In this document: positions 2,781 to 17,674 of the stretch, in pieces | Layout: each line of letters starts with the position of its first letter | Numbering within the stretch: position 1 is the first letter of the stretch | Assembly: GCA_018812505.1 (NCBI GenBank) | Contig: JAHJDK010000149.1 | Span: 1-25,618, forward strand | DNA: 25,618 bases | DNA from: Nanobdellota archaeon | Lineage (GTDB): Archaea > Nanobdellota > Nanobdellia > Woesearchaeales > GCA-2686295 | Direction of reading: 5' to 3' | Made by a program: the position numbers and the translations under genes | The notes under the pieces: generated by a model | The model's database searches: none | What the model was told of the DNA's origin: nothing | The model's input: only the letters and a program-made list of their open reading frames with translations

Positions 2781-3008
2781 TTATTTATCAGCCCAATCCC
2801 TGATAGCCTGATAACCCTTTACTCCTGCATAAGTCAAGGCAGCAGCTTTTAGCAAAGGAGCACCAACAATCATTGCAACGCCAAAACCGACAGCGCCGTA
2901 CAATGCTTTATTCTTATTGGCTAATAAATTAATAGGATTAGGATTATAATCAAGAGTTTGAACCTTTAACTTGCTTATTAATTTATCAGTTATTAAACCT
3001 ATATCCAT
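2781..3008 (-). CDS. Small membrane protein with a Gly/Ala-rich hydrophobic segment
   Basis: Hydrophobic stretch ALYGAVGFGVAMIVGAPLLKAAALTYAGV. The track's GTG start at 3017 lies inside a GAGGTGA SD, so the ATG at 3008 is preferred. Confidence 0.65.
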   Translation of the reverse strand: MDIGLITDKLISKLKVQTLDYNPNPINLLANKNKALYGAVGFGVAMIVGAPLLKAAALTYAGVKGYQAIRDWADK

Positions 3009-3013
3009 AAAAA

Positions 3014-3667
3014 TCACCTCTGGCTAGTTTCATATTGACGGTAAAGATTATCAAGATACTCAGTAAACATTAGGTTGATCTTGTTCTTTGTATCTGCACC
3101 CAGCATTTGCTCATACTTTCCAAAATTAAGATTAACACCCTTGCTAAATAAGTCATCATCAACCATTACAGTATCAACACCATTGCTCAAGTACAAGTTG
3201 TTCTTACCATTCTCATCCTGAGCAACCAATAATTGAATGTTCTGAACAGCTATAGAGTTATAATTCTCTCCATGCTTTGAGATTTGTGCTGATTTGAAAA
3301 GTTCAAAAGAACCATCAATAATACTATCTAAACTGTCATCATCAAATTTGTTTTGTTCGAATCTTTGCTTCAAACCATCAAGCATATTTTTAGTAGAGGG
3401 AAGCATATCATACAACACCTTAAGTTTCTTGCCAGTAGAGTTATTAACAAGATAAGTATCCATGGCGCCGCTATCATTCTCTTCCCAGTCAACCTCTAAT
3501 ATTGCAGGGCTTTTGAAACCATTCTCAGCAATAGGCACGTTCCTGTTAAACAAGTTATAATCAAGTTTCTTTATATCATTGTGATAGGCATAAGCAAGAA
3601 AGAAAACAGTCAGAGCGCCACCCTTAGCAAGAATTGCCCAACCCCACTTACCAAGTCTCTTGCCCAT
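3014..3667 (-). CDS. Hypothetical single-pass membrane protein (N-terminal anchor)
   Basis: MGKRLGKWGWAILAKGGALTVFFLAYAY anchor. AGGTGA SD at 3674-3679. Coupled to both neighbours. Confidence 0.7.
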   Translation of the reverse strand: MGKRLGKWGWAILAKGGALTVFFLAYAYHNDIKKLDYNLFNRNVPIAENGFKSPAILEVDWEENDSGAMDTYLVNNSTGKKLKVLYDMLPSTKNMLDGLKQRFEQNKFDDDSLDSIIDGSFELFKSAQISKHGENYNSIAVQNIQLLVAQDENGKNNLYLSNGVDTVMVDDDLFSKGVNLNFGKYEQMLGADTKNKINLMFTEYLDNLYRQYETSQR

Positions 3668-3984
3668 TATAAATCACCTATCCATTCATCAAATGTTTGT
3701 TTAGGAGTTGCTGATGTAGAATCGTAGACCACAACATCTTGGGGTTTAGAAATCGCTTTTTGCATAGAGGTGTATGACTCGTCAGGGCAATCACCTGTAA
3801 CCAGGTAGATAACACTGTTCTTTAACCTGTTATAAACGCAGTCTATATTCTTGGCAACATCAAGCTTGTCACCTGTGTACATCAAAGCACTAACAAACAT
3901 CAAACTTCCAATAGTAAAAGACTTCCACTTAGACTTCTTTTTAACATCAACAACTTTTTCATCAATTGAATCTTTATCCATCAT
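3667..3984 (-). CDS. Hypothetical single-pass membrane protein
   Basis: Basic KKKSKWK followed by hydrophobic FTIGSLMFVSALMY. GGGTGA SD at 3987-3992 precedes ATGs at 3984/3981. Confidence 0.65.
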   Translation of the reverse strand: MMDKDSIDEKVVDVKKKSKWKSFTIGSLMFVSALMYTGDKLDVAKNIDCVYNRLKNSVIYLVTGDCPDESYTSMQKAISKPQDVVVYDSTSATPKQTFDEWIGDL

Positions 3985-4150
3985 AATCACCCGCTTATAG
4001 CTAAAGCTAATAAATATTGAATCAGCTTTTTTAACTAAAACTAAATAATAAGATAGAAAAATTGTTTAATAAAAGTGTGTAGTGGTTGAATGTACAACAA
4101 ATAAAATTAGTTTTTTAAGAATGATTTATGCTTACAGTCTAAATCAGTAT

Positions 4151-4582
4151 TTATTCAATTCCATCCAATAATATTCGATTGTATGTATATCCTTTAATTG
4201 TTGCATTATCAGCTTCATCCTGTCTTCCTAATGCCATAAGCACTCTGGCTTTTCCATCCCATGCCATCTGGTTTTCCTGGCTGAATTCTTCTGTCAACTC
4301 TGTGACTTTGTCGTAGCACGAAAGTGCCCTCTCTGGCTGTTTAAGATATGCATCATATATTAGTGCTTGAACAGCCCATGCTTCAACATTGTAAGAATCA
4401 TTATCAGTTATTACCTGCCAATACTCTAAAGACTTATTGTATTGCATTTCATTGTATAGCTGCAATGCTTTATCTCTTAAGTTACTGATGTCTGCAGATA
4501 TTTCTTCTGGATTTCTAACTCTGATAACTATTTCTTCCAATGCTTTGAATTCTTCTTCCGGATTGATTATTTCTTCAGACAT
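4151..4582 (-). CDS. TPR protein with shared N-terminal leader (EEIINPEEEFKALEEIVIRV)
   Basis: TPR-like AWAVQALIY..PERALSCYDKV and AWDGKARVLMALGRQDEA. The start at Met4 of the track ORF aligns the leader. Confidence 0.75.
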   Translation of the reverse strand: MSEEIINPEEEFKALEEIVIRVRNPEEISADISNLRDKALQLYNEMQYNKSLEYWQVITDNDSYNVEAWAVQALIYDAYLKQPERALSCYDKVTELTEEFSQENQMAWDGKARVLMALGRQDEADNATIKGYTYNRILLDGIE

Positions 4583-5417
4583 TTTTTTCATACGTTACTC
4601 CTAGTACATTTATTGCCATTCCCTCTTGTAATTTATCTCTTAATAGCATTAGTTCATGAACGTTTGCCTTGAAGAAAATTGATGGATTGCTTACTTTGAA
4701 AGATGTTTTATTTAATTCTTCTTTTATGTAATTTGCTAATTCTATTTGTTCTATGCTTCTAAGTTGTTTTATCGCTTCATTGTATGAATGATTGCTTTGA
4801 ATTATTGTTGTGTGAGTTACTTGCTGCTGATACAAGTCTTTCTTTAGCGTTTCTACACCGTATCTTTTGTTGTTCAATGCTTTTTCGCTTATCTCTTTCA
4901 GAGTTTCAAGTTGCTCTCTAATGTCTTTAAATGTTTCTTGACTATAGTTCCCATTGCATGAACCTATATTTTTTAGTCTTGTATCAATTCTTAGTTGTTG
5001 TTCTGCTTTGTATCTTCCGGATTTTTCTAGTTGTTTGTCATATGTTTGTATAAGAAATTCAAGTTTTTCCTCGTTGTCAGGTTCCTGACTTACAGCTTCC
5101 AAGATTATTGGATTAGCTATCTTGAAATATTCTTCTGCTCCTCTAATAAATGTTTTTATAATTAATTCTTTATGATTACAGGTTTCTTCACTATCATCTA
5201 TTATTGCTAATTCTTCAGTTATTTTGTCTGATAAGTTTTTAACTGCCGGCATGAACTTGTTAATATATAAGTTTGTTTGTCTTGACTTGCTCATTTCAAA
5301 ATCGTAATAGACTATTACTTCATCTATGCTTGAGTTGTTGCTTTGATTATTTATTCTAATAATTGTTTTCTTTAAAGCTTCAAATTCTTCTTCCGGGTTG
5401 ATTATTTCTTGGATCAT
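4575..5417 (-). CDS. Hypothetical alpha-helical protein with shared N-terminal leader (QEIINPEEEFEALKKTIIRI)
   Basis: 280-aa ORF rich in E/K/I/L, overlapping the next gene. No family recognised. Confidence 0.7.
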   Translation of the reverse strand: MIQEIINPEEEFEALKKTIIRINNQSNNSSIDEVIVYYDFEMSKSRQTNLYINKFMPAVKNLSDKITEELAIIDDSEETCNHKELIIKTFIRGAEEYFKIANPIILEAVSQEPDNEEKLEFLIQTYDKQLEKSGRYKAEQQLRIDTRLKNIGSCNGNYSQETFKDIREQLETLKEISEKALNNKRYGVETLKKDLYQQQVTHTTIIQSNHSYNEAIKQLRSIEQIELANYIKEELNKTSFKVSNPSIFFKANVHELMLLRDKLQEGMAINVLGVTYEKNV

Positions 5418-5418
5418 C

Positions 5419-6453
5419 TTACATATAGTTCATCATTATACTGCGTGATTTTTCTAATAATCTATTTCCTTTATTGTACAATTCAGTATATCTTTTGGTT
5501 GCTTGGACATTGATTGATCCTCCGAAAAATTTATCTAGCGAACTCGTAGGTTCTCTGCTAGTATCTATTTCGTTTGCTTCATCATAGAATTTCTGCGCTT
5601 GTTTTTTGTATTCATTAGCTATTTCTTCTGCGAACTTTCTGAATTGAGAACTTATCTTTCTTCCTTTCATCCGATTAATCTTTTCAAATATTTTCTCTTG
5701 TTCTCCGAATGAATTTATACTCATTCCCATTTTTGAAATCTTATCAACTAACTTGCTTTCAGCCCACTCATCTCTTTCATCATATGGTCTTGACTCGAAT
5801 AAACTGATTAGTTTGTCAATTTTTTCTTTTGCGCTTCCGCATTTTGATTCAATTAGTTTTTCTGCTTTGTCAAAGTCATCATTCCGCACGTATAGTTTGG
5901 CTAGTTTTTCCTTTATCTCTGTTGCTCTGTAGCTGTCTACCTGTATTTCAAGGATTTCTTTGTACAACTTTATGGCTGTGTCCAATGTGTAACTCTTGCT
6001 TTCCGCTTCTCTAGCTTTGTTTATTAATAGTTCATAAAGCCTGTTTTTTGCTCCGGAATTATTAGAATCTAGGCATAGTATCTTGTAAAGCAGTTGTTTC
6101 TCTTTATCAACACTTTCTCCTCGATACACTTCTGCTAGTTTGAATAAGTAATTAGTGTTGTCAGGTTTGAGACTTACCAGTTCCTTCACTAAGAATTCTC
6201 GATTGGAGAAGCTATGACATACATAATTTGTTTTGTACACAAAGTTTTCAAGACCTGATGTTATTATTTTTCTTTGTGTTTCATTCAGTCCTTTACTCTT
6301 TGCTTTACTGATAGCAGTCCTAACCTTTTGTATGTTACTGGATTCAAACGCTTCTTTCAACAAGTCATCTACAGGTATGATTACCCTTATCTCTAGGTTT
6401 GCAAGTTTTTCAAACTCTCTTTCAATATCCTTAATGTCTTTGTCAAGAGTCAT
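5419..6453 (-). CDS. TPR-like helical repeat protein with shared N-terminal leader (MTLDKDIKDIEREFEKLANLEIRV)
   Basis: TPR-like segments LKPDNTNYLFKLAEVY, AIKLYKEILEI and KLAKLYVRNDDFDKAEKL. ATGA overlap with the upstream gene. Confidence 0.75.
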   Translation of the reverse strand: MTLDKDIKDIEREFEKLANLEIRVIIPVDDLLKEAFESSNIQKVRTAISKAKSKGLNETQRKIITSGLENFVYKTNYVCHSFSNREFLVKELVSLKPDNTNYLFKLAEVYRGESVDKEKQLLYKILCLDSNNSGAKNRLYELLINKAREAESKSYTLDTAIKLYKEILEIQVDSYRATEIKEKLAKLYVRNDDFDKAEKLIESKCGSAKEKIDKLISLFESRPYDERDEWAESKLVDKISKMGMSINSFGEQEKIFEKINRMKGRKISSQFRKFAEEIANEYKKQAQKFYDEANEIDTSREPTSSLDKFFGGSINVQATKRYTELYNKGNRLLEKSRSIMMNYM

Positions 6454-7133
6454 TCTATTGTTATGTTATCATAGTCTATTATTCTCATTAATGATTTTTT
6501 GAAATCTTGCTCGCGTGGATTTATCTCTATAGCTTTATTAATAGAATTAACTGCTTCTTGGTAATCTTTTAGTTCCCACAACGCATCAGATTTGTTAACC
6601 CAAAAAACGCTTTTTCTTGGATTAATTTCTATTGCTTTATCAAAGTCTTCAATTGCTTTTAGTAACAAGCTCTTTTTTTCTTGAACTCTTTTTGGGGTGT
6701 TTTGGTTTATAGGTATATTTTTTGCAATTTCTTTCAGTGTATATCCTTTATAGTTCCAAGTATATTCATAGTTAGGATTTTGAGCTATGGCATTTTCAAA
6801 ATATTTGACTGCTTCTTTGTAATGTTTATCTTTCAGATTTGAGCATGCTTTTGAATACCATTGGTTGGTTTTGCTCTCAGATTTTGTTACTTCAAGCCCT
6901 TGTTTTTCTTGTTCTACTCTTAAAAGGATATTACTAACTATTTCCTCTTGTTGGTACTTTAATTGATCCACAAGGATGATAAAATTTCTGTAAATTTGGT
7001 TCACTTTACGGAGTTTCTCAACAAGGATTTCTTGATTAACATCATTTTTTTTTATAGTTTTGATTTTGATAACTACTCTTTCCAATGCTTCAAACTCTCT
7101 TTTAATATTTTTTATGTCTTGGTCAAGGGTCAT
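6450..7133 (-). CDS. Coiled-coil plus TPR protein with shared N-terminal leader (MTLDQDIKNIKREFEALERVVIKI)
   Basis: TPRs: WYSKAC..YKEAVKYFENAIAQNPNY, TWNYKG, FWVNKSDALWELKDYQEAVNSINKAIEINP. Confidence 0.85.
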   Translation of the reverse strand: MTLDQDIKNIKREFEALERVVIKIKTIKKNDVNQEILVEKLRKVNQIYRNFIILVDQLKYQQEEIVSNILLRVEQEKQGLEVTKSESKTNQWYSKACSNLKDKHYKEAVKYFENAIAQNPNYEYTWNYKGYTLKEIAKNIPINQNTPKRVQEKKSLLLKAIEDFDKAIEINPRKSVFWVNKSDALWELKDYQEAVNSINKAIEINPREQDFKKSLMRIIDYDNITIE

Positions 7134-8125
7134 TTTGTCCTGTAGATGTTGTTGTGAATAAAACTTTTTATTATTGTATCACTTTCTGTTCCGTGAGTGT
7201 TCTTTTTTATTTCATTCATAAACTCTAATTCATTTGTTTGTGCCTTGGAATATAATCCTCCACCTCTTATGTCTGCGTGATTGTTAGTTATTTTATTAAG
7301 TCTAAAATTGTTTGAAGATTTGTAGGCACATATACCTCCTCCATAACCATATGCTTTGTTGTTCACTATGATATTTTCTTTTATCAATGCATCAGAATTG
7401 AAGAGGAGTATTCCTCCTCCTGATCCTGCAATGTTGTTTTGTATCAAACATTCTTGTATGGTGCAGTTAGATTTTGTTATGAATATTCCTCCACCATATG
7501 TGTTTATTCCGCTAAATGTTGGAAAATCCCAAAACATCATTGTATCTGTGTAAAGATATTCTTTTTTCAGTAATGAATATAGGTGATATTGACCTAATCC
7601 CTTCTCGATTATACAGTTCTTCAGTATGCTGTCATTTGAGTTTTCTCCTGCTACAGTTATATTTCTCCAAGGACTAGAATGTGATGTGAATATTATTTTT
7701 TCTTTTTCTGTCCCTATAGCTTTAAGTGTTCCATAACAGATTATCCCTCCAGTACTATGGGCAAATAAAGGATTTAAGTCTAGTTCTGTTCCTGGCTCTA
7801 TCTCAAGTGTTCCTCCAGAGTTTATTATTAAGGGAAAATCAATTTCATATTTTCCTTTTTTTAGTAATATATATTGATCTATTCCTCTTGCTAGTTTGAA
7901 GTATTTTGATATATTATCTATTGGTTTGCCAAACCTATCAACCACTTCAAACTTATTATTTATGACTTTGATTACAGAATTCTCGAGTTCTTCAAGTTCT
8001 TTTGATTTAAATGGCTTGTCACGTTTATCGACCACTCTAATCTCACTGTCTATAATTTTTATTACTACATTTTCCAACTCGTCGAATTCTCTTTCAATAT
8101 TTTTGATTTCTTGGTCTAAGGTCAT
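7130..8125 (-). CDS. Right-handed parallel beta-helix (pectin-lyase-like) protein with duplicated N-terminal leader
   Basis: LIINSGGTLEIEPGT, GTLKAIGT...IIFTS, and repeated GGGI/L plus N-rich rungs (GGGIFI..SNCTI..CLIQNN.A, GGGILL.NS.ALI.ENII.NN.A). The leader segment occurs twice. Confidence 0.8.
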   Translation of the reverse strand: MTLDQEIKNIEREFDELENVVIKIIDSEIRVVDKRDKPFKSKELEELENSVIKVINNKFEVVDRFGKPIDNISKYFKLARGIDQYILLKKGKYEIDFPLIINSGGTLEIEPGTELDLNPLFAHSTGGIICYGTLKAIGTEKEKIIFTSHSSPWRNITVAGENSNDSILKNCIIEKGLGQYHLYSLLKKEYLYTDTMMFWDFPTFSGINTYGGGIFITKSNCTIQECLIQNNIAGSGGGILLFNSDALIKENIIVNNKAYGYGGGICAYKSSNNFRLNKITNNHADIRGGGLYSKAQTNELEFMNEIKKNTHGTESDTIIKSFIHNNIYRTK

Positions 8126-8988
8126 CTTGTTTTATTTAATAGTGTCTTTTGCGCTATCTTTTTATTTTGTTTATATATTTCATTTGAAGGGTTTATGTTT
8201 ATTGCTTTATCATATGCTTTTATTGCTTCTTCATATTTCTTAATTCTTTCAAGTGCCACTCCTTTGTTGTTCCATGCTGTTGCGTATTTTGGTTTTATTG
8301 TTATCGCTTTGTCATAACATTCTATTGCTTCTTCTATTTGTCCTAGATTTTCTAGTATAAATCCTTTATTAATCCATGTTTCTGTGAGTTTTGGTTTTAT
8401 TTCTATTGCTTTGTCATAACATTCTATTGCTTCTTCTAGTTGTCCTAATTCGGATAATATTACTCCTTTGTTGTTCCATGCTGTTGCAAATTTTGGTTTT
8501 ATTTCTAGTGCTTTATCACATGCTTTTATTGCTTCCTCTAGTTTCCCTAAATCTTTTAGTGCCATTCCTTTGTTGTTCCATGCTGTTGCATATTTTGGTT
8601 TTATTCCTATTGCTCTATCATATGCTTTTATTGCTTCTTCTAATTTTCCTAGATTTGCTAGTTCTACTCCTTTGTTGTTCCAAGCAAGTCTATGATTTTG
8701 CTTTAGGCTTATTGCTTTGTTATATCTTTTAATTGCTTCTTCTAGTCGCCCTTCTTTTCCTAGTGCTTTTCCTTTGTTGTACCATTCATCTGCTATTATA
8801 TGCCTTATGAGTGAGTGTTTTCCTTGAAATTTTAGATTGTCTATTGTTTCGTATGTTCCAAACACTGTCAGAAACATCACAGCCAAGAACCATTCAGGAA
8901 TTTTTATAAGACGTTTTTTTCTCTTTATTTTTAATCTTCTTAACTCGTCAAATTCTCTTTCAATATCTTTTATTTCATCAAGGCGCAT
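8122..8988 (-). CDS. Membrane-anchored TPR protein (6 TPRs) with shared N-terminal leader (MRLDEIKDIEREFDELRRLKIK)
   Basis: Six 34-aa canonical TPRs (AWNNKG..L..LG.LEEAI..YDKAI.IKPK) follow a basic patch and a hydrophobic segment (WFLAVMFLTVFGTY). The start at 8988 aligns the leader; the track start is 9024. Confidence 0.88.
   Translation of the reverse strand: MRLDEIKDIEREFDELRRLKIKRKKRLIKIPEWFLAVMFLTVFGTYETIDNLKFQGKHSLIRHIIADEWYNKGKALGKEGRLEEAIKRYNKAISLKQNHRLAWNNKGVELANLGKLEEAIKAYDRAIGIKPKYATAWNNKGMALKDLGKLEEAIKACDKALEIKPKFATAWNNKGVILSELGQLEEAIECYDKAIEIKPKLTETWINKGFILENLGQIEEAIECYDKAITIKPKYATAWNNKGVALERIKKYEEAIKAYDKAININPSNEIYKQNKKIAQKTLLNKTR
8182..8793 (-). repeat. Coding tandem repeat with a unit of about 102 bp (six TPR units)
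   Basis: The plus strand shows recurring ttgttgttccatgctgttgc / ttctattgcttc blocks at a 102-nt period, matching 34-aa TPR units. Confidence 0.85.
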
Positions 8989-9032: not shown

Positions 9033-10370
9033 TTATTTTGGCAGTAGCTCTACCAATGTTTTGTATTTTTTCCAGGTGTTTTGATTGTTGCACACTGGAT
9101 TTTTGTATCTTAAGAGGTTGCTTCTTTGTGTCTTGACTTGTTCTACTTCTTCTTTCTTGAATTCTGTACTGCTGATTGTTTCTTTTAAGTCTATGACTTC
9201 TCTTAATTTTCCTTGTGTAAATTCATAGTCTTTCTCCCATCTTTGACGTATGGTGTTGTCTAGTGGGTTTCCTTTCAGTAATGCTTGAACTTCGTCCTTA
9301 CTAGTGTATTTGCCAATTTCGTTGTTCACTTCTTTGAGAAATTCTTCTCTTGCATTCGCTAATTTCACTATGTCTCCTGCTGACAATAATTCTTTGTTTG
9401 AGTTTGTCACTTGTTCTATTTGACTGAGGTATCTTCGTTCTATTGTTTGGTATAGTTCTGTTGGTTTTACTTCTGGTGTTGCAGTTGGTCCGCCGTGAAA
9501 TTCTTCCAGAAACATGTCTATTGTTGAGTACCTGTAGTCTTTGATATTCTTGCCTGTTAGGTTGTCAGGAGTTTTTATCTCAAGCATTCTTCTTAGGAAG
9601 TATTTGGAGTCTTTTGTTATGTTTAGCTGTGCTATTTGTGCCATTACAAAATCATAAAATATTGAGTGTTCCTCTCCAGGCCACATATTTCTAAGTGTTT
9701 GATGCGTTCCTTCAATGTTGAATCCTTGGAATGCTTCAACTCCCAAACCAAATATGTCTGTACTTTGAGAGTACTGCATGGTTTTTTTGAAATATTGTTC
9801 TATTAATTCGTAGGAACTGTATTCTATCGCGCTTTGATGACTTCTTGTACTTCTTTTCTGTGATGCATATTCAAAGTCTGAAACAGTCCAGATTATCTTT
9901 CCTCCTTCTTTGTATCCGAGACAGTTTGTGTCTTTTGGGTCTCTGTAAATATATCCTGCCAGATGCAATTCTTTGTTTCCAAGTGCTAATTGTATTATTA
10001 TATCCCACATTTCTTCTTCAAAGTTTTTATTCTGGTCTAAACTTGGAAAGAACTCTTTCAAATTCATATCTGCCCTTTCCATTAAAACTGCTTTATACCC
10101 TGCATATACTAGCGGCTTGGTTCCTATCAATCTCGCGAGGTGTGTTCTATCTTTTACATCTTGTATAATTTTATAAGTTCTTTCACTCTGTTCGCCTGTT
10201 GTGTCCCAGAGAGGAACTTTTAATGCACAGTTTAGGTTGTTCTCTTTCTGCTTCATAAAAATAATCAATGTATCATTTTTTATTCCTTCATCTTTTATAT
10301 CTGTAAATCTTTTATCATCTTCTAAATCATCTAATATTAGTTCTTTTATTTCGCTGTCTGTCATCTTCAT
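9033..10370 (-). CDS. Atypical Hanks-type Ser/Thr protein kinase with C-terminal helical extension
   Basis: ALKVP (subdomain II Lys), VLME, YIYRDPKDTN (catalytic loop), VSDFEYA (DFG-like), YSSYE (APE-like), STDIFGLG (subdomain IX). No clear GxGxxG loop. Confidence 0.85.
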   Translation of the reverse strand: MKMTDSEIKELILDDLEDDKRFTDIKDEGIKNDTLIIFMKQKENNLNCALKVPLWDTTGEQSERTYKIIQDVKDRTHLARLIGTKPLVYAGYKAVLMERADMNLKEFFPSLDQNKNFEEEMWDIIIQLALGNKELHLAGYIYRDPKDTNCLGYKEGGKIIWTVSDFEYASQKRSTRSHQSAIEYSSYELIEQYFKKTMQYSQSTDIFGLGVEAFQGFNIEGTHQTLRNMWPGEEHSIFYDFVMAQIAQLNITKDSKYFLRRMLEIKTPDNLTGKNIKDYRYSTIDMFLEEFHGGPTATPEVKPTELYQTIERRYLSQIEQVTNSNKELLSAGDIVKLANAREEFLKEVNNEIGKYTSKDEVQALLKGNPLDNTIRQRWEKDYEFTQGKLREVIDLKETISSTEFKKEEVEQVKTQRSNLLRYKNPVCNNQNTWKKYKTLVELLPK

Positions 10371-11230
10371 ATCCTCCCATATATCATGAATGTTATGTTA
10401 TCACCTAGCTTATTGGTGATGTCAAGATTAAACTCTTCTGTCAAGCTTAGCGAATCATATGCGTCTCTTATCATAATAGGATTCTCTGCTATCCATCTCA
10501 AATCTTCCTTGATTTGTTCTTCTTTAGTTCTTTTCTCACCCAAAAAGATTCTGCTTATAATATTTTGTTCTATCTGGCTGTCGTATAGTATTCCTAAAAT
10601 CTCTTCTTCTGCAACCATACTTGTAAATCCATCAGTTCCCATTATTAGTATATCTCCATCTTTGAAAGGTTTTTCATATAGCTCAACATTTATGTTTGGT
10701 TCTTTTCCAATGTAGTTTGTCAAATCTGATTCTCCTTTCAACACTTGTTGTTCTGTCTCTAAGAGTTGTGAGATATCTTTTGGCAGGTATACTTCTTCTG
10801 TTGTTAGTTTTTCTATTGTGTCGTCTTGGATGTTTGCAATATATACTGCTCCATCTCCGACGTGTCCACCATATAGTTTGTTGTTATAAATCATGCAGGT
10901 ATCAAGCGTCGTTCCACAATGTGATAATTATCCTACATTCTTTGCTATGCTAGTTATTACTTGGTTTGTTTCTCCTATTGCTCTGCTAATTCTTCTCAGT
11001 ATTTTTTCTTCTTTCACAATACCTCTTTCTAATCCTGATTGCAACATCAACATTTTTTTCATCAGGTAGTAGGTTGTTAGATCACTTGCTTCTGCTCCTG
11101 CTGCGTGTTGTCTTCCACCCATACCATCTGCCATCAAGAATATTTTTTTCTCAAAGTCTGCTCTTAATGAGTCTTGATTTTCTTCTCTCGTACCTATTGT
11201 TGATTCCCATATACAGTTATTTTCAGTCAT
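10367..11230 (-). pseudogene. PP2C/PPM-family protein phosphatase interrupted by one in-frame TAA (10928-10930)
   Basis: The two track ORFs share a frame: ...AKNVG-TAA-LSHCGTTLDTC-MIYNN. PPM motifs lie on both sides: GTREENQD and MADGMGG before the stop; GTT, HVGDG, MGTDG and GDNITF after it. AGGTGGA SD precedes the ATG at 11230. Confidence 0.85.
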
Positions 11231-13463
11231 TTTTCTCCACCTGTGTTCTTGTTTTATCAAAATTATTTATGTCTAATGTTTCCATGCAATAATTGTTTCC
11301 TTCATGGTATATTGCGAGCATGTTTCCTGGTTTGTCTGAGAAAAAGAATAAGTTTTCATCTTGTGTCCATATGCTTGTTTTGTTTTCGAATAATTCATTT
11401 TGCAGTACATATATCTGGCTTGTTCCTTTGAACAAGTCTTGTTTTTTGTAGTAGTTATTGATTATAATTCCTTCTGGTTCTTGGGTTATAACCTGAATTC
11501 CTCCTTCATCTAAGTTTGTGACTGCAATTGTTTTGAACATAGTGGTTATTTCTCTTGCTTGATTATTTTCAAGGTCTTTTACAATCATGTTTCCTTGCAG
11601 TTCGTTGTAAAACATCAGGTTGTTTTGTTCGTTTAGGATTTTTATCCTGCCTATATCTGTTTGTGAAGTTATAATTGGTGTGGAGATTATTCTTTGTCCG
11701 TCAAATACATACATTTCTCTTGGTGTTGCTAAGATTAATCCTTTATGATATGGAATAATCCTTTGCACTTCTAGATTTGTGTTTGTTATTCTTATTAGTC
11801 CTTCTTCTGGTTGGTACACACATATACTCGTTCTGTTATTATCTGTTCTTAAGAAGTATAAGTTTTCATTGTAACTCATGTCTTGTATGAACGGTCCAGC
11901 CTCATTTCTTGTTATTGGTTCTGATATGTGTATTGGTTTATTGTTATGTTTTTCGAACACAAATAATTTGTATTCAAATGTTTTACCTCCATGATTTCTT
12001 TCACTTAGACCAAACACTTCATTATCTCCTATTGCAAATGCACCTAATCTGGTTCTTTTATGTTCATAAGCCATCTCACTCCAGTTTGTAGGTCTGGATT
12101 TCTCGATTGGAAGGTTAAGAATGTATGTTGTTATTATTGGTGTTTTTGACTTATTAAATGAGTATTCTACTATTGTTCTATCGCTTATTTTTGAATGAGT
12201 GTAAATCCTTGAGTTCAGTGAATTTGTCAATAATCTTTCTTTGTTTATTGGAGTTTCCTCTCTGTTTATAATAATTGCATTTGCATTTGATCGTGTAGTA
12301 ATAACTCTTGTTGATGCTTTAAACATGTTCAGCATTAGCTCTGTGTCATCATTTGCAGTTAATTTGTGAAATTCTTTTGGAAGGTTTGTGTTTATAACTG
12401 CTTCTAAGGATTCTGTTGGTCCTACGATTCTATCTTGTATTTGTTGAAAGTCCTGATTTGAAAACAATTCTAGTTTGTCTTCGTTTAACTCTGGAAATCC
12501 TCTCTCAAAGGTTGTTGGCAGTTTGAAAAAATAATGATTATCACCTATTTTGTATGGAATCCCTATTGTTGTTGTGCCTCTGTTTATGACTGCTTTTGTT
12601 AGCTGCTGTATGGCTCTACCTGTTGGTATTGCTGTTGGTACTTCTCTTAGTAATTTTTCAATTGGTGTGTCAGAATATTTTCTTTGTAAGTAATCTATTT
12701 CCCATTCGATTTGTTTAACAGCCCATTTGTTGAGTTCTGAAACAATTTCTCCTTCATGTTCTCTTATTAAATCATATATTCCAAATGTTACATCCTCGTC
12801 CCAGACGGTTGTTCCTATTATTATTTCTGCACTCCTCAAAATTGGCCATGGCCTGTCATGATATCCGGATATTTCAATATTTATTCCTTCGTAAGCGTTG
12901 AATTTCTTGTTGATAAAAGTTTTCAGTATTTGTTTGCACCTTGCTTCTTCTATTGGTACGTGTGCTGTTATCTGTCTGATTGATGGGATGTTCCATCTTT
13001 GTGCTGCGTAGTGTGCGAGTGCTTCTGGCAGGTTTGATACTATGTTTATTATTCCTTTGAATTCCTGATTGAAATATTTTGCAAGTTCATCTATTAATGG
13101 CAGGTTGCTTTCAATCATGTTTGGTCTTTCTTTTTCTGTTGAAAGGTGTTTGCTTGCTGTGAAGAAGAAAAGACTTGTTTCTTTCAGAATTGTTTCTAAA
13201 TCATCCTTGTTGCTGTTTATGATTTCTGTACAATACATAGCTCTGTTTTCAGATGTTATTTCCTGCGCTCTTTTTTTCATACCCTCTCTTTTATCATAAC
13301 TGCCCTCGTTTCCAACAAGATATATTTTATTTATAGGTCTAAATATCTCATGTTCAGTTGTTGCGCATATCGCTGCTAATCCTTTCTCTGCAACTCCTCC
13401 ACATCCATAGAATGTAATATTGAACTCTTCATTATTTGATTTCTGAGCTTTTTTCGTGTTCAA
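11223..13463 (-). CDS. Fusion of an LDH/MDH-like Rossmann domain and a probable C-terminal beta-propeller
   Basis: ITFYGCGGVA (dinucleotide loop), ERPNMIESNLPLI, IVSNLPE, PIEEAR and ISGYHD resemble the LDH/MDH R..N, SNP, DxxR and GEHG motifs. The C-terminal ~350 aa consist of repeated short beta-strands. GGGGAG SD then TTG at 13463; the track start is 13493. Confidence 0.65.
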   Translation of the reverse strand: MNTKKAQKSNNEEFNITFYGCGGVAEKGLAAICATTEHEIFRPINKIYLVGNEGSYDKREGMKKRAQEITSENRAMYCTEIINSNKDDLETILKETSLFFFTASKHLSTEKERPNMIESNLPLIDELAKYFNQEFKGIINIVSNLPEALAHYAAQRWNIPSIRQITAHVPIEEARCKQILKTFINKKFNAYEGINIEISGYHDRPWPILRSAEIIIGTTVWDEDVTFGIYDLIREHEGEIVSELNKWAVKQIEWEIDYLQRKYSDTPIEKLLREVPTAIPTGRAIQQLTKAVINRGTTTIGIPYKIGDNHYFFKLPTTFERGFPELNEDKLELFSNQDFQQIQDRIVGPTESLEAVINTNLPKEFHKLTANDDTELMLNMFKASTRVITTRSNANAIIINREETPINKERLLTNSLNSRIYTHSKISDRTIVEYSFNKSKTPIITTYILNLPIEKSRPTNWSEMAYEHKRTRLGAFAIGDNEVFGLSERNHGGKTFEYKLFVFEKHNNKPIHISEPITRNEAGPFIQDMSYNENLYFLRTDNNRTSICVYQPEEGLIRITNTNLEVQRIIPYHKGLILATPREMYVFDGQRIISTPIITSQTDIGRIKILNEQNNLMFYNELQGNMIVKDLENNQAREITTMFKTIAVTNLDEGGIQVITQEPEGIIINNYYKKQDLFKGTSQIYVLQNELFENKTSIWTQDENLFFFSDKPGNMLAIYHEGNNYCMETLDINNFDKTRTQVEKND

Positions 13464-13493
13464 AATTATCTCCCCAAAACTTTTGAAAAACAA

Positions 13494-13577: not shown

Positions 13578-14303
13578 ATGAATGAAGACATACTTACAGA
13601 TTTAGGATTAAGCACTAACGAAGCAAAGATATACACTTCTCTATTATCATTAGGTCTAACAACCATAACCTCTATCGCTCATGAGTCAAAGCTTCACAGA
13701 TCAAACGTTTATGATTCTATAAAAAAACTTGTTGAAAAAGGACTAGTTGCATACATCATAAAAGATAATGTGACATACTATGAAGCTACAGACCCGCAAG
13801 CGCTTCTAAGGATATTAAAAGAAAAAGAAAACAGGTTGAAAGCTGTTTTGCCACAACTGATGCTGTCAAAGAAGCTTGCACAGTCAAAAGGCGAAGCGCA
13901 CATCTACGAGGGAGTGCCTGCATTTACAAGATTGTTGTACGAGTTCTTACAATATAAAGATCCAATACTTGCATACGGAATTCCACCTATTGCTCCTGAA
14001 CTTATGAAAACCAAGATAATGCATTTTCACAAGGAAAGAATGGCACTGAAAATACCAATGAAGCACATATATAACCACAATGCTCAGGAACGCATAGTAT
14101 TTCTTAATAAGATGAAACTCACTTATGCAAGGTACCTTCCAGAATCATTCGATTCACAGGTATCAACAAACATTTGTGGAGAGGAAGTTTTATTGACTTT
14201 GTGGATAAAACCTGTTCTTACGATTCAAATAAAAAATAAGTTAGTCGCTGACTCCTACAAGAAATACTTTGACCTTCTATGGGCTGCTGCAAAAGCAGAT
14301 TAG
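13578..14303 (+). CDS. TrmB-family transcriptional regulator (wHTH plus effector-binding domain)
   Basis: LGLSTNEAKIYTSLL.LG.TT...IA.ESKLHRSNVYDSIKKLVEKGLV, Y.A.DP..L, and a C-terminal IKN..VADSYKKYFDLLW typical of archaeal TrmB-like proteins. Confidence 0.9.
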   Translation: MNEDILTDLGLSTNEAKIYTSLLSLGLTTITSIAHESKLHRSNVYDSIKKLVEKGLVAYIIKDNVTYYEATDPQALLRILKEKENRLKAVLPQLMLSKKLAQSKGEAHIYEGVPAFTRLLYEFLQYKDPILAYGIPPIAPELMKTKIMHFHKERMALKIPMKHIYNHNAQERIVFLNKMKLTYARYLPESFDSQVSTNICGEEVLLTLWIKPVLTIQIKNKLVADSYKKYFDLLWAAAKAD

Positions 14304-14701: not shown

Positions 14702-15277
14702 ATGAGCAGTAACACACAAACAGATATGTTAATGATAGAATTCCAACAAGGAAATGAGTTGGCAGGAATACAAATCTACGAGCAAACATGGAACTATGTG
14801 AATAACTATTTAAAAAACAGTATGCCAGAGTTATCAAACTATGGAATAGATTCACAAGATATCACCCAGCAAGCATTCACGAAGATGTTTCTTAGAAACC
14901 ATCAATTCCAGTCAAGATCATCTGTGAAAACATGGCTGTGCAGCATTGCAAGAAACGAAGCAAAAATTGAACTTAAAAAAAAATCTAATAAAAACTCATC
15001 TCTGGACTTAATACTGGAAACAAATGGAGACTCTATAATGTATGAATTACAAGAAAATAACTATTATGATGATCAAGAAAATATGAATAGAGTTAGGTGT
15101 GCAGTTTCAGACTTAGGCAAAAAAAATCTTAATCAAGCAACAACGTTCATTCTAAGATATATGCAGGGATTAACAATAAAAGTTGTTGCATTAATGACTG
15201 ATTCAAACATATCAACTGTCAAAACCAGAAGTCACAGGGCAATGAACTATGTCCGAAGAATAATAGGACAATACTAA
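14702..15277 (+). CDS. ECF-type sigma-70 family factor-like protein
   Basis: Region 2: DSQDITQQAFTKMF....FQSRSSVKTWLCSIARNEA. Region 4.2 HTH: FILRYMQGLTIKVVA......STVKTRSHRA. At 191 aa it has typical ECF size. Confidence 0.88.
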   Translation: MSSNTQTDMLMIEFQQGNELAGIQIYEQTWNYVNNYLKNSMPELSNYGIDSQDITQQAFTKMFLRNHQFQSRSSVKTWLCSIARNEAKIELKKKSNKNSSLDLILETNGDSIMYELQENNYYDDQENMNRVRCAVSDLGKKNLNQATTFILRYMQGLTIKVVALMTDSNISTVKTRSHRAMNYVRRIIGQY

Positions 15278-16219
15278 TTATTTTTTTGTCTCTAATTCTT
15301 TCTTCTTCTTTTCAAGATCTTCAAGCTTCTTGCCATTAAGCTTTTTTGCAAAGAAAGGTAAAAATATGTTTGCATTAGCAAGCCATAACAACAAACCGAC
15401 AACAATAGCAATTATTGCATATAGCAAGTATTGACTGTAAAAACTTGCAAGTTGATCTGAAAGAACACTTACGATTTTTGTAATCATTTTTTGAGGATCT
15501 ATAGGAATATCCCCTCCAACAATCTTTGAAAGGTCTAACTTTCCAAAAACCCATCCAAGAGCATTTGTCTTGGCAAGAATATATGGAAATATGAATATTG
15601 CAGAGACAAAGAAAACCAGTTTTCTGGCAATGTAATCTGATAGTATCAACAAGTCATTATTAATCAAGTACAATATTAATAACAAAACAAAAATGCCTAT
15701 TAGTAGGTATAAGTTTAAAAAAATACTTTTCTCCTTTAATTCATCAATAGAATTACCAGCATCAGTGATTGTTTCACCAAGGCTTTCAGCAATTTGAACA
15801 GCGGCATCTTCTTCAAAAGAATCCATTTTAACATCCAGAACTGCATCAATCATTGTTTCACGGTCAAGACTTCCATTAGCACATTCTCTTTCAAAAACAA
15901 ACAGTACATCTTCATCATCAGTTTCTATTTGGTCTGAATATTCGCAAAGGTCTCCTTCAGGCAACTCATCAAGATTGTGTTCAACCATAACATCCTGAAT
16001 ATCATCATCCGAGAGCATATCATCAACGTTTTCAATCACAACAGATGCCAATTCAGAAGATAAGTTTTCAGCGTTATCCTCAAAATGCTTTATCGTGCTT
16101 TCAGAAACAGTTAAGGTTAACAATAAAATAAGAACTAAACTTAGACCAAGAATTAAAAATGCGTTTATCAAGCGATTATACCACTGAAGCTTTCGTTTTT
16201 TATAGTCACTAATTTTCAT
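15278..16219 (-). CDS. Hypothetical multi-pass membrane protein with an acidic soluble loop
   Basis: N-terminal TM (AFLILGLSLVLILLLTL), a D/E-rich domain, then about three further hydrophobic segments and a basic C-tail. Confidence 0.75.
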   Translation of the reverse strand: MKISDYKKRKLQWYNRLINAFLILGLSLVLILLLTLTVSESTIKHFEDNAENLSSELASVVIENVDDMLSDDDIQDVMVEHNLDELPEGDLCEYSDQIETDDEDVLFVFERECANGSLDRETMIDAVLDVKMDSFEEDAAVQIAESLGETITDAGNSIDELKEKSIFLNLYLLIGIFVLLLILYLINNDLLILSDYIARKLVFFVSAIFIFPYILAKTNALGWVFGKLDLSKIVGGDIPIDPQKMITKIVSVLSDQLASFYSQYLLYAIIAIVVGLLLWLANANIFLPFFAKKLNGKKLEDLEKKKKELETKK

Positions 16220-16291: not shown

Positions 16292-16711
16292 TTAATTAGA
16301 ATAGGCTGTGTGAAAAGATTTTTCTTTTGCATCCATTTTTATTCTCCAAACCTTACACTCTAACTTATATGCTTCTGTGAAGATTGGTTCATAGTTGGAA
16401 TTAATGATTCTCTTTAGAAATCTACTTCTATATTTAGAATCTATATTATTAACCAGACGCTTTAGCTCATGTTCTACATTTTTAGCATCATCCCTTACCA
16501 ATTCATAGTCCACTGCAGTAACTGACTCACTCAGCCTAGATATTAAGTTAGAAACTTTATCTTTGTATATTTTAATAGTAGATTTATAATTTGCTATGTC
16601 GCCAGAAACAGGTTTGGAACCATTTGATTCTGAATTTTTAACTTTTATTTTTACATTTTTAAGCGCATTAAATTCCAGTGCTATTCGTAAAACTTCCTTG
16701 TCCAAAGTCAC
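16292..16711 (-). CDS. Helical protein with shared leader (MTLDKEVLRIALEFNALKNVKIKV); paralog of the N-half of 16751-17674
   Basis: GTG start. Aligns along its full length to the neighbour (SKYRSRFLKRIINSNYEPIF vs SKYRTKVLKRVINPAYESIF). Confidence 0.75.
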   Translation of the reverse strand: MTLDKEVLRIALEFNALKNVKIKVKNSESNGSKPVSGDIANYKSTIKIYKDKVSNLISRLSESVTAVDYELVRDDAKNVEHELKRLVNNIDSKYRSRFLKRIINSNYEPIFTEAYKLECKVWRIKMDAKEKSFHTAYSN

Positions 16712-16718
16712 ATCATTG

Positions 16719-16750
16719 GTAATGCTTGCAGGTTTTTAAAGGTTATAGAA
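16719..16750 (-). repeat. Duplicated 32-bp promoter segment (second copy at 17682-17713)
   Basis: gtaatgcttgcaggtttttaaaggttatagaa vs gtaatgcttacaagtttttaaaggttatagaa, 2 mismatches. Contains TTTAAAAA on the minus strand upstream of both GTG starts. Confidence 0.85.
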
Positions 16751-17674
16751 TCAATAATACTTTTTATTGGATTTTCTGGCAATGTAGATACCTGTTGCTA
16801 ATCCAATCACAGCACCTGATATCATGCCATGAATTGTTAAATCAGAACCTGATGAGTTCATAGCCATTTCGTGACAGACACTTCCTAAGCCTACAGCTCC
16901 AATAAAAGTACCTAATCCTCCATATAAAACATATTTTCCGGCTTTTACAAGACATCTAAAAACAGGTTTAAAGTCAACATCTTCAATCAGGTAAGGAAAC
17001 ATTGCACCTATAATACCTGAAAAACCAGTCATTATAGCTATTATTGCTCCTTGATCTTTATCTCCGTTAATTGTAACTTTACTTAAATAATAAGTACCTA
17101 TACCTCCTCCTGTTGCAAATAAAAGAGTTCTTGCAATACCCCATTTTAATCTGGAGCTTATATTTAATCCAGGTTCATAATAATTTTTTTCTGGCTCATC
17201 ATTAATTAATGAATTTAAAGAATTAGTAACAGAAGGTTTATATTTGCGCTCATATTTATAAGCTCGAGCTGCAGAATTAGATTTCTCTTCTGCATCAAGT
17301 TTTATTATCCAAGCCTTACCTTCTAAAGAATCAGCTCTTTTAAAAATAGACTCGTATGCAGGATTAATCACTCTTTTTAGAACTTTAGTTCTGTACTTTG
17401 AACCTATTTCATCGACCAAATGCATTAATTTAGTTCCTATCTTATCAGAATCTGACTTTAGCGTTAAAAAATCTTCTGCATAGATGGCTTCTCTCATTTC
17501 AGATGTTAAACTTGAAATTTTTTTTTTATATCCTTTAAGTATTGATTCATAGCTCGTAATATCATCAAGAATAACTTGTGAAACCTCAGGCGCAGGTTCT
17601 TCAACTCTTATCTTTGCATTTTCAAGTGCTTTAAACTCTAATTCTATTTTTAGAATCTCTTTGTCTAATGGCAC
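16751..17674 (-). CDS. Leader-bearing protein (MPLDKEILKIELEFKALENAKIRV) with a helical domain and four Gly-rich C-terminal TM segments
   Basis: GIARTLLFATGGGIGTYYL, GAIIAIMTGFSGIIGAMF, YGGLGTFIGAVGLG and GMISGAVIGLATGIYIA (GxxxG-rich). Confidence 0.8.
   Translation of the reverse strand: MPLDKEILKIELEFKALENAKIRVEEPAPEVSQVILDDITSYESILKGYKKKISSLTSEMREAIYAEDFLTLKSDSDKIGTKLMHLVDEIGSKYRTKVLKRVINPAYESIFKRADSLEGKAWIIKLDAEEKSNSAARAYKYERKYKPSVTNSLNSLINDEPEKNYYEPGLNISSRLKWGIARTLLFATGGGIGTYYLSKVTINGDKDQGAIIAIMTGFSGIIGAMFPYLIEDVDFKPVFRCLVKAGKYVLYGGLGTFIGAVGLGSVCHEMAMNSSGSDLTIHGMISGAVIGLATGIYIARKSNKKYY

Follow-up and report, generated by a model that had tools for sequence, protein, structure and literature searches.

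We analysed the 25,618-nt contig JAHJDK010000149.1 (positions 1 to 25,618 of the forward strand; assembly GCA_018812505.1), here called the window, from an uncultivated Nanobdellota archaeon of the DPANN group (Archaea; Nanobdellota; Nanobdellia; Woesearchaeales; GCA-2686295), whose assembly comprises 1.4 Mb in 261 contigs and is 84% complete. The window carries a tightly packed minus-strand operon, running from 13493 down to 4151, in which adjacent genes overlap by 4 nt at stop and start or are separated by a 1-nt gap. Behind a head protein, a PPM-type phosphatase (PP2C) and a Hanks-type kinase, the last two encoded side by side, lie six genes whose products all begin with one 25-residue leader peptide, termed here the type-1 tag, and then continue into different bodies. 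In total, the leader opens nine proteins, eight encoded in the window and a ninth on another contig. The genes are listed below and are named in the text by their first coordinate; the E-values given for leaders are those of a hidden Markov model (HMM) built from the eight leaders of the window. TPR stands for tetratricopeptide repeat, TM for transmembrane segment and LDH/MDH for lactate/malate dehydrogenase.

11223..13493, minus strand: head protein, LDH/MDH fold followed by a 7-bladed beta-propeller (AF2, Foldseek, VIA-align)
10367..11260, minus strand: PP2C phosphatase (Stp1/IreP-type match E 8e-32, below the equivalog cut-off and read through with X at an internal break)
9033..10370, minus strand: soluble Hanks-type kinase (Pkinase E 2e-8, above cut-off) with a 146-aa C-terminal domain (9036-9473)
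8122..8988, minus strand: tagged gene 1, leader at 8917-8988 MRLDEIKDIEREFDELRRLKIKRK (HMM E 1.6e-9), cluster of lysine and arginine (K/R), TM (aa ~27-43) and six TPRs
7130..8125, minus strand: tagged gene 2, leader at 8051-8125 (HMM E 9e-15), partial second copy and right-handed beta-helix
6450..7133, minus strand: tagged gene 3, leader at 7059-7133 (HMM E 1e-14) and TPR body (TPR_2 E 6e-17)
5419..6453, minus strand: tagged gene 4, leader at 6379-6453 (HMM E 3e-12) and helical/TPR-like body
4575..5417, minus strand: tagged gene 5, variant leader at 5349-5417 MIQEIINPEEEFEALKKTIIRIN (HMM E 1e-10) and helical body
4151..4582, minus strand: tagged gene 6, variant leader at 4514-4582 MSEEIINPEEEFKALEEIVIRVR (HMM E 8e-11) and short TPR body
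16751..17674, minus strand: tagged gene 7, second locus, leader at 17600-17674 with GTG start (HMM E 3e-11), helical domain and C-terminal Gly-rich membrane helices
16292..16711, minus strand: tagged gene 8, second locus, leader at 16637-16711 with GTG start (HMM E 5e-12) and helical domain

The aligned leaders give the consensus M-T-L-D-x-x-[IV]-x-x-[ILP]-E-x-E-F-x-x-L-x-x-h-x-I-[KR]-[VI]-K, within which [ILP]-E-x-E-F-x-x-L-x-x-x-x-I-[KR]-[VI]-K forms the core. Run against every stop-to-stop frame of the 1.4-Mb genome, the HMM recovered exactly the eight leaders at E-values of 1e-9 to 1e-15, at the N-terminus every time, and past these eight gave no match better than E ~0.7. An earlier reading of the window made from its letters (the sequence-only reading) had reported the leader on six consecutive and two further genes and had suggested this search; the genes are as it described, and the hits are N-termini only. 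Two starts needed correction: in gene 4151 the leader begins at the fourth codon of the longest open reading frame (ORF; Met at 4582), and in gene 8122 its start is the ATG at 8988 rather than a TTG further upstream (9024). The ninth member was found among the weak matches of the HMM (contig C30, 1459-2343, minus strand), where MTEKEYLSIEEIEKEFELLEQTNIRIK is followed by K/R residues, a TM and TPRs; the longest ORF of this gene begins ~50 codons too early, and the leader is seen once the likely start is used. The beta-helix protein encoded by gene 7130 also holds an internal half copy of the leader at aa 45-57.

Four residues of the leader (E13, F14, L17 and I22) are invariant, their codons having zero entropy at positions 1-2 and 0.7-1.7 bits at position 3. 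Across 21 leaders from two species, the proportion of synonymous differences (pS) is 0.69 and that of non-synonymous differences (pN) 0.33, with pS > pN in 207 of the 210 pairs. Selection on the leader acts at the peptide level, as the sequence-only reading had suggested. That reading recognised no named family, and indeed no match to the leader was found in Pfam, NCBIfam, PADLOC or PDB sequences, the PDB search giving one chance-level internal match (PyrK, E 0.13). The faint likeness to SHOCT or PspA that it also suggested did not hold up, both being absent from the Pfam scan at E <= 0.1. The ESM Atlas returned nothing by features and generic single helices by structure, a word-index protein search with the leader region returned the query protein alone, and full-text literature searches gave no description of the leader or of the module. 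Contigs from four public runs of three studies (biofilm, groundwater) hold the array DNA without any difference; because these metagenomes are independent, the leader array is not an assembly artefact.

The bodies behind the leader are diverse. Pfam recognises TPRs in four of them and, in a fifth, a beta-helix repeat of the PMP type; the others have no match. In BLAST the leader-less bodies show no similarity save a generic TPR-TPR one (8122/6450/4151) and that of 16292 with 16751, which are paralogs (45% identity over 101 aa past the leader). Local alignment scores of the window proteins give z 2-12 for the N-terminus and z about 0 for non-TPR bodies. The idea of variable cargo therefore stands as regards unrelated folds and a portable N-terminal module, while the TPR bodies and the 16292/16751 pair are partly paralogous. 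Among the individual bodies, gene 8122 has TPR matches at E 1e-67, gene 4151 weak TPR matches, and gene 5419 TPR_19 matches that are all sub-threshold; the helical body of gene 4575 belongs to no family in Pfam, NCBIfam or PADLOC. The beta-helix of gene 7130 is modelled with high confidence by AlphaFold2 (AF2; pLDDT 85-98), and Foldseek finds for it only weak matches to beta-helix proteins (best Rhombotarget A, E 1e-3) and no close solved relative. In the same model the tag is a helix at aa 3-31, of moderate confidence (pLDDT about 73 over the first 20 residues), followed by a linker of low confidence to about aa 80. Of the amphipathic acidic helix and short beta-strand that had been predicted, the helix thus stood; no strand follows it in the AF2 model, where a disordered linker is found instead, although residues 19-25 do alternate between hydrophobic and basic. 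In gene 8122 (hydrophobic window 1.78), an N-in topology is expected because eight K/R precede the TM and two follow it.

A kinase module followed by tagged arrays across the order

In a wider survey the order was searched for the head protein, and the related loci were fetched and read. At least 15 genomes of the order carry the module followed by 1-6 or more downstream genes; where several genes follow, their products mostly share an N-terminal peptide specific to that genome, and most bodies are unrelated. The tie between leader and kinase/PP2C/propeller operon head that the sequence-only reading suspected is accordingly a conserved synteny, with an own tag in each genome. The arrays include the following.

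G006, same locus, L057 4986-8013 (C3): four genes after LDH-propeller, PP2C and kinase, M-x-E-x-G-G-I-E-K-K-I-K-N-R, unrelated bodies
G155, L085 1561-7069 (C18): six genes, DQNLExKLExI
G480, L134 7094-10192 (C4): five genes, KPELEEILxxI
G030: four genes, KRLDEILxxI
G157: two of three genes, EKTLLELVDEIV
G136: two genes, LEERLxETFQRLKE
G172: two genes, N/DLEELLKR
G316: two of three genes, DLxELVxxEA
G007, type 2, L082 7732-10282 (C10): four genes, MxEGELExxIExI

Local scores of these other arrays resemble those of the window, with z 5-17 for the N-termini and about 0 for most bodies, and pS exceeds pN in most genomes. When tags were ranked by genome, the tags of the own genome came first for 51 of the 58. 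A Gibbs search over 41 N-termini yielded the loose core x-x-x-[LI]-E-x-x-[LI]-x-x-[IV], about 11 residues being conserved. Because this core is too short for significance across a proteome, no homology in sequence is claimed for type 1 and the other tags, which are equated by position and context. Six other genomes have bodies homologous to the beta-helix of gene 7130, and the tag on these is in every case the local one. Two G006 proteins hold the peptide GGIEKKIKNR twice, as the window beta-helix protein does in part. G092 belongs to a different family within the order; its kinase is followed by one protein (L132 9900-10997, C3), which starts with MMADSLKPRNIEREIDEVIELLDYKP and a TM and whose NIEREIDEV is identical in 7/9 residues to NIEREFDEL of type 1, a suggestive near-match.

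By a looser hydropathy criterion, 21 of 62 tagged proteins combine the tag with a K/R cluster and one TM at aa 30-70, having 3-8 K/R before the TM and 0-3 after it. Since this bias predicts an N-in orientation, the tag would be the sole cytoplasmic part of the TM-bearing members. For the N-termini of the core proteins, the tags of their own genome rank no better than chance (means 9.1, 8.1 and 6.3 out of 17), whereas the tags themselves reach first rank in 51/58, and the idea that the core proteins bear the tag at their own N-termini was rejected. The type-1 HMM found no copy in the kinase, PP2C or LDH-propeller protein, a search that did not extend to internal copies of the short tags of other types. 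Tags are shared even in arrays that contain no TPR protein (G148, G136), which rules out a TPR neighbour as the general receptor.

The core order of the module is LDH-like protein, then (PP2C), then kinase, except in G030 and G157, where the kinase precedes the LDH-like protein. None of the three proteins of the window has a TM. The AF2 model of the head protein (mean pLDDT 75.6) shows an LDH/MDH fold at aa 22-371, matched to LDH/MDH by Foldseek (E 3e-13) and to archaeal MDH by VIA-align (Z 28.9), and a propeller at aa 427-756, matched by VIA-align to methylamine dehydrogenase and WD40-type propellers (Z 19.8). Across 12 head homologs G30, R123, N130, R185 and H212 never vary, and G32 and N154 hardly do. 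In a 401-genome sample of the phylum, the full-length head protein was detected in this order only. A TrmB homolog adjoins the module in most related loci fetched; in the window this gene is divergently transcribed:

13578..14303, plus strand: TrmB-family regulator (TrmB Pfam E 9e-17)

The PP2C gene of the window contains an in-frame TAA (10928-10930, minus strand). In run X1, a possible assembly source, and in the independent run X2, the plus strand reads G for T at 10929, giving TCA (Ser), and since contigs of both runs read TCA at the break, the population has an intact phosphatase gene; an assembly or consensus error, or a rare variant, accounts for the stop. At 11413, four of four runs have C on the plus strand, not A, which changes codon 694 in the propeller domain from ATA (Ile) to AGA (Arg); this is probably another consensus difference in the window. 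Identity among congeners is 57-61% for SerRS, but the window head protein shares only ~28% with its G006 and G007 counterparts and has its best match in G148, of another family, at 32% over the full length. These values suggest that the module diverges fast or is exchanged, evolving far faster than housekeeping genes.

The type-1 tag and the 146-aa domain of the kinase

The type-1 tag itself is confined to a small group. HMMER against 1.84 billion representative proteins returned proteins of the own genome (or fragments from near-identical strains) and one protein of the congener G007. Among 40 relatives the tag was found in G007 alone, and among 401 genomes sampled from the order only in this genome and G007. 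G007 has 13 type-1 genes in four clusters, with the tag at residue 1-8 in each. In its main cluster, which shares synteny with the window, six type-1 genes follow a 159-aa ORF, and the far flank holds homologs of window 3667-3990, 3014-3667 and 2781-3017, of an NTP-transferase and of SerRS. A second G007 cluster is syntenic with 16292-17674, including a homolog of gene 16751 (L014 8672-9574), together with one further gene of the window:

15278-16219: conserved membrane protein gene

This membrane protein was considered as a tag-specific partner and rejected, as it is present in G002, G005 and G006 without upstream leader genes. An ECF-type (extracytoplasmic function) sigma-70 gene at 14702-15277, with Sigma70_r2 and r4_2 Pfam matches, converges on it in this archaeal genome.

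The kinase of the window differs from its homologs at the C-terminus. In an alignment of 10 kinases, nine share a C-terminal domain (FLWGPPFT...RYTL) which the window kinase lacks, its last 146 aa (9036-9473) standing in place of it. The possibility that these 146 aa are a diverged form of the standard domain was rejected (hhalign probability 0.5%). They are 45% identical to the body of the free-standing 159-aa ORF of G007 (L013 361-840, G007:C13), which bears a type-2 tag and lies directly upstream of the type-1 array. The 146-aa domain was found in 2/401 genomes, exactly the two with type-1 tags, and in both it stands directly upstream of a type-1 array, fused to the kinase here and as a separate tagged protein in G007, a hint of the Rosetta-stone type.

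The contig ends of G007 suggest the layout kinase, four type-2 genes, of which the 159-aa ORF is the last, and six type-1 genes. At the end of C10, a type-2-tagged TPR gene (L082 ~10280) has an in-frame stop, with TPR repeats continuing to the contig end, and the start of C13 (L013 1-230) begins inside TPR repeats; C10 and C13 probably join inside this gene. The arrangement of the window looks like the product of a deletion by which the kinase domain came to be joined to the 159-aa ORF body; in this apparent event the standard C-terminal domain would have been lost, and with it the type-2 tag. We therefore regard the 146-aa domain as a candidate receptor or adaptor for type-1 tags, and as the most likely receptor for type 1 that comparison of the two loci offers. 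This is a lead and not a proof, because one event in two sister species underlies it.

Possible roles of the tag

The best explanation of these patterns is that type 1 is a local, extended form of a genome-specific N-terminal tag lying behind a conserved Woesearchaeales module. As to its function, we propose that the leader is a cytoplasmic docking handle by which variable proteins (scaffolds, sensors, membrane proteins) are coupled to the soluble signalling module, a proposal held tentatively and with nearly as much belief as doubt. It starts from what the data support directly, namely the tag, its selection, distribution and synteny, and the topology and folds of the proteins, and adds binding, the identity of a receptor and phosphorylation of the tagged proteins, which we infer. 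The putative handle, on a flexible linker, would precede interchangeable bodies (TPR, beta-helix, Gly-zipper or single-pass membrane proteins) and would bring every one of these to the same cytoplasmic partner within the module, which may couple them to reversible phosphorylation; the membrane-anchored members would then act like a receptor tail drawing in a soluble kinase. Each genome having its own tag sequence, tag and receptor would be expected to co-evolve. A bolder version, which we consider rather doubtful, is that of a modular "plug-in receptor kinase", in which a soluble hub (a metabolite-binding LDH-like domain with propeller, PP2C and kinase) would be wired to changeable modules (extracellular or cytoplasmic sensors, adhesins and scaffolds) through genome-private address peptides co-evolving with a receptor domain. 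If this is true, the two tag types of G007 would exist because adaptors make a second tier, the 146-aa domain bearing one code and binding another.

Several findings weigh against the docking handle. Type-1 genes also occur off the operon (16292-17674, contig C30 and three further G007 loci), PP2C was not seen within the fetched stretch in G030, G157 and G228, and the co-occurrence of the 146-aa domain with type 1 concerns two sister species and amounts to one evolutionary event. The profile of the 11-residue core misses the type-1 leaders in the proteome of this genome (best 9 bits). Moreover, certain homologous bodies have a TM anchor and lie outside the cell in one genome but are TM-less in another, a difference of which a pure docking model gives no account.

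The tag might alternatively serve homotypic assembly, its N-terminal helices binding one another as a short coiled coil or beta-zipper so that the array proteins would co-assemble into a membrane-tethered complex merely regulated by the kinase module. The hydrophobic residues of type 1 at 3, 7, 10, 14, 17, 21 and 24 do have heptad spacing and the leader a moderate amphipathicity (hydrophobic moment mean z 1.6), type 1 reads as a helix with alternating h-K-h-K, the tags within a genome are alike as self-binding requires, and TM-bearing members could tether the TM-less ones. However, most non-type-1 tags have ~11 residues, about three helical turns and short for a stable coiled coil, a Pro at position 10 in four type-1 leaders breaks a long helix, and the AF2 helix confidence is just moderate; loci with a single downstream protein (G299, G092, G491, G228) have at most a tag-like N-terminus. 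We consider this role unlikely, though to be taken seriously. A regulatory phosphosite or degron, the tag being a kinase/PP2C substrate or turnover element with Thr2 of MTLD as acceptor, would fit arrays that always lie behind a kinase, Thr2 in 14 of the 21 type-1 leaders, and the S/T that directly precedes the core in several dialects (KS-LEE, QS-LEE, KT-LLE, ES-LDD; D/E in others). It is nevertheless improbable, as other genomes can have N, G, R or K at this position and some type-1 leaders P, A, V or R, and no S/T is among the invariant residues (E, F, L and I). From helix-capping preferences, S/T/N/D/G would be the set expected at a helix N-cap, which counts against a phosphosite.

An export or membrane-targeting signal of an unrecognised archaeal pathway comes to mind because the tag is N-terminal, beta-helix and TPR bodies are often extracellular, and G136, G316 and G491 have a homologous beta-helix that a TM anchors outside the cell, that of the window being without TM or signal peptide. 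Yet the tag is non-hydrophobic, with no hydrophobic stretch, and is net acidic in most members; it lies on the K/R-rich cytoplasmic side in TM-bearing proteins, and Sec, Tat and class III signal features (h-region, twin-Arg, prepilin motif) are not present within the leader. No secretion-system genes are conserved beside the arrays in the fetched loci, and the membrane neighbour 15278-16219 is also found in tag-less congeners. We find such a signal quite improbable, and with about a third of the tags predicted to be cytoplasmic on N-in anchors, the effector or export analogy of the sequence-only reading was not supported. It is highly improbable that the shared start has no separate function and is a remnant of tandem duplication or gene conversion in a TPR family. 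Many bodies are TPRs, the likely ancestral form is tag, TM and TPR, the type-2 tags of G007 have pS about equal to pN, and two G148 genes are whole-gene duplicates; but synonymous sites are near saturation while four residues stay invariant over 21 leaders of two species, the bodies include unrelated folds, and the pattern recurs with different tags in many genomes.

Related systems and biological meaning

Several known systems resemble parts of this arrangement. Encapsulation peptides of bacterial microcompartments (BMC) are N-terminal amphipathic helices of ~18 aa on PduP, PduD and EutC, and the cargo-loading peptides of encapsulins are usually C-terminal, unlike the present tag. As here, a short terminal amphipathic helix with a linker is borne by unrelated proteins of one operon; these peptides target a common partner, which for the present tag is a proposal. 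The cargo here consists of scaffold and membrane proteins rather than enzymes, and the conserved partner genes are the kinase module. Neither the BMC shell (PF00936) nor encapsulin (PF04454) has a match in the own genome (84% complete), whereas control genomes match for both. Dockerin and cohesin of the cellulosome likewise join many proteins to one docking module with species-specific pairing; the dockerin is a ~70-aa Ca-binding C-terminal domain acting outside the cell, and there are no cohesin-like repeats here.

In Stk1/Stp1, PknB/PstP and the TerY-P triad (vWA, PP2C and kinase), a kinase gene and a PP2C gene likewise adjoin each other and, with a third component that is not catalytic, make up a phospho-switch encoded in one operon. 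The third partner here is an LDH/MDH fold with a propeller, not vWA or FHA, and vWA (TerY) had no match among the operon proteins in the Pfam scans; the present kinase has neither sensor nor TM, and the tagged array has no counterpart in any of them. Kinase docking motifs such as the MAPK D-motifs are short linear peptides acting outside the catalytic site. Propeller proteins can play a comparable part, as the WD40 protein DCAF7 forms a bridge between its partners and DYRK1A/HIPK2 (PMC4910162). Both kinds of element recruit diverse proteins to one kinase, and this is the likeness we propose for the tag, in view of its synteny with the module in at least 15 genomes, its predicted cytoplasmic exposure and the co-occurrence of type 1 with the 146-aa kinase domain; the present peptide is, however, strictly N-terminal, genome-specific and archaeal, and marks a whole array. 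Effector-associated domains (EADs) of NTP-dependent conflict systems were reportedly described by Kaur, Burroughs, Iyer and Aravind in eLife in 2020. With these the arrays share one N-terminal adaptor on neighbouring genes with different C-terminal domains, in fast-evolving patchy operons. EADs are globular, about 80-100 aa long and also present on the core protein (homotypic), whereas the present tag has 25 aa (type 1) or about 11 aa and was not found at core-protein N-termini.

DPANN archaea have tiny genomes, and their host-contact and signalling biology is almost unknown. The head protein, with its retained catalytic-type residues and propeller, hints at a link between metabolite and phospho-signalling. 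If the docking proposal is true, natural and mutually orthogonal peptide-receptor pairs with domains under 150 aa could become parts for protein engineering, and the tag would offer a first way into the function of dozens of DPANN proteins (TPR, beta-helix, membrane) now labelled "hypothetical". It would also mean that a minimal cell wires many outputs and sensors to one kinase/phosphatase pair by means of short, fast-evolving peptides.

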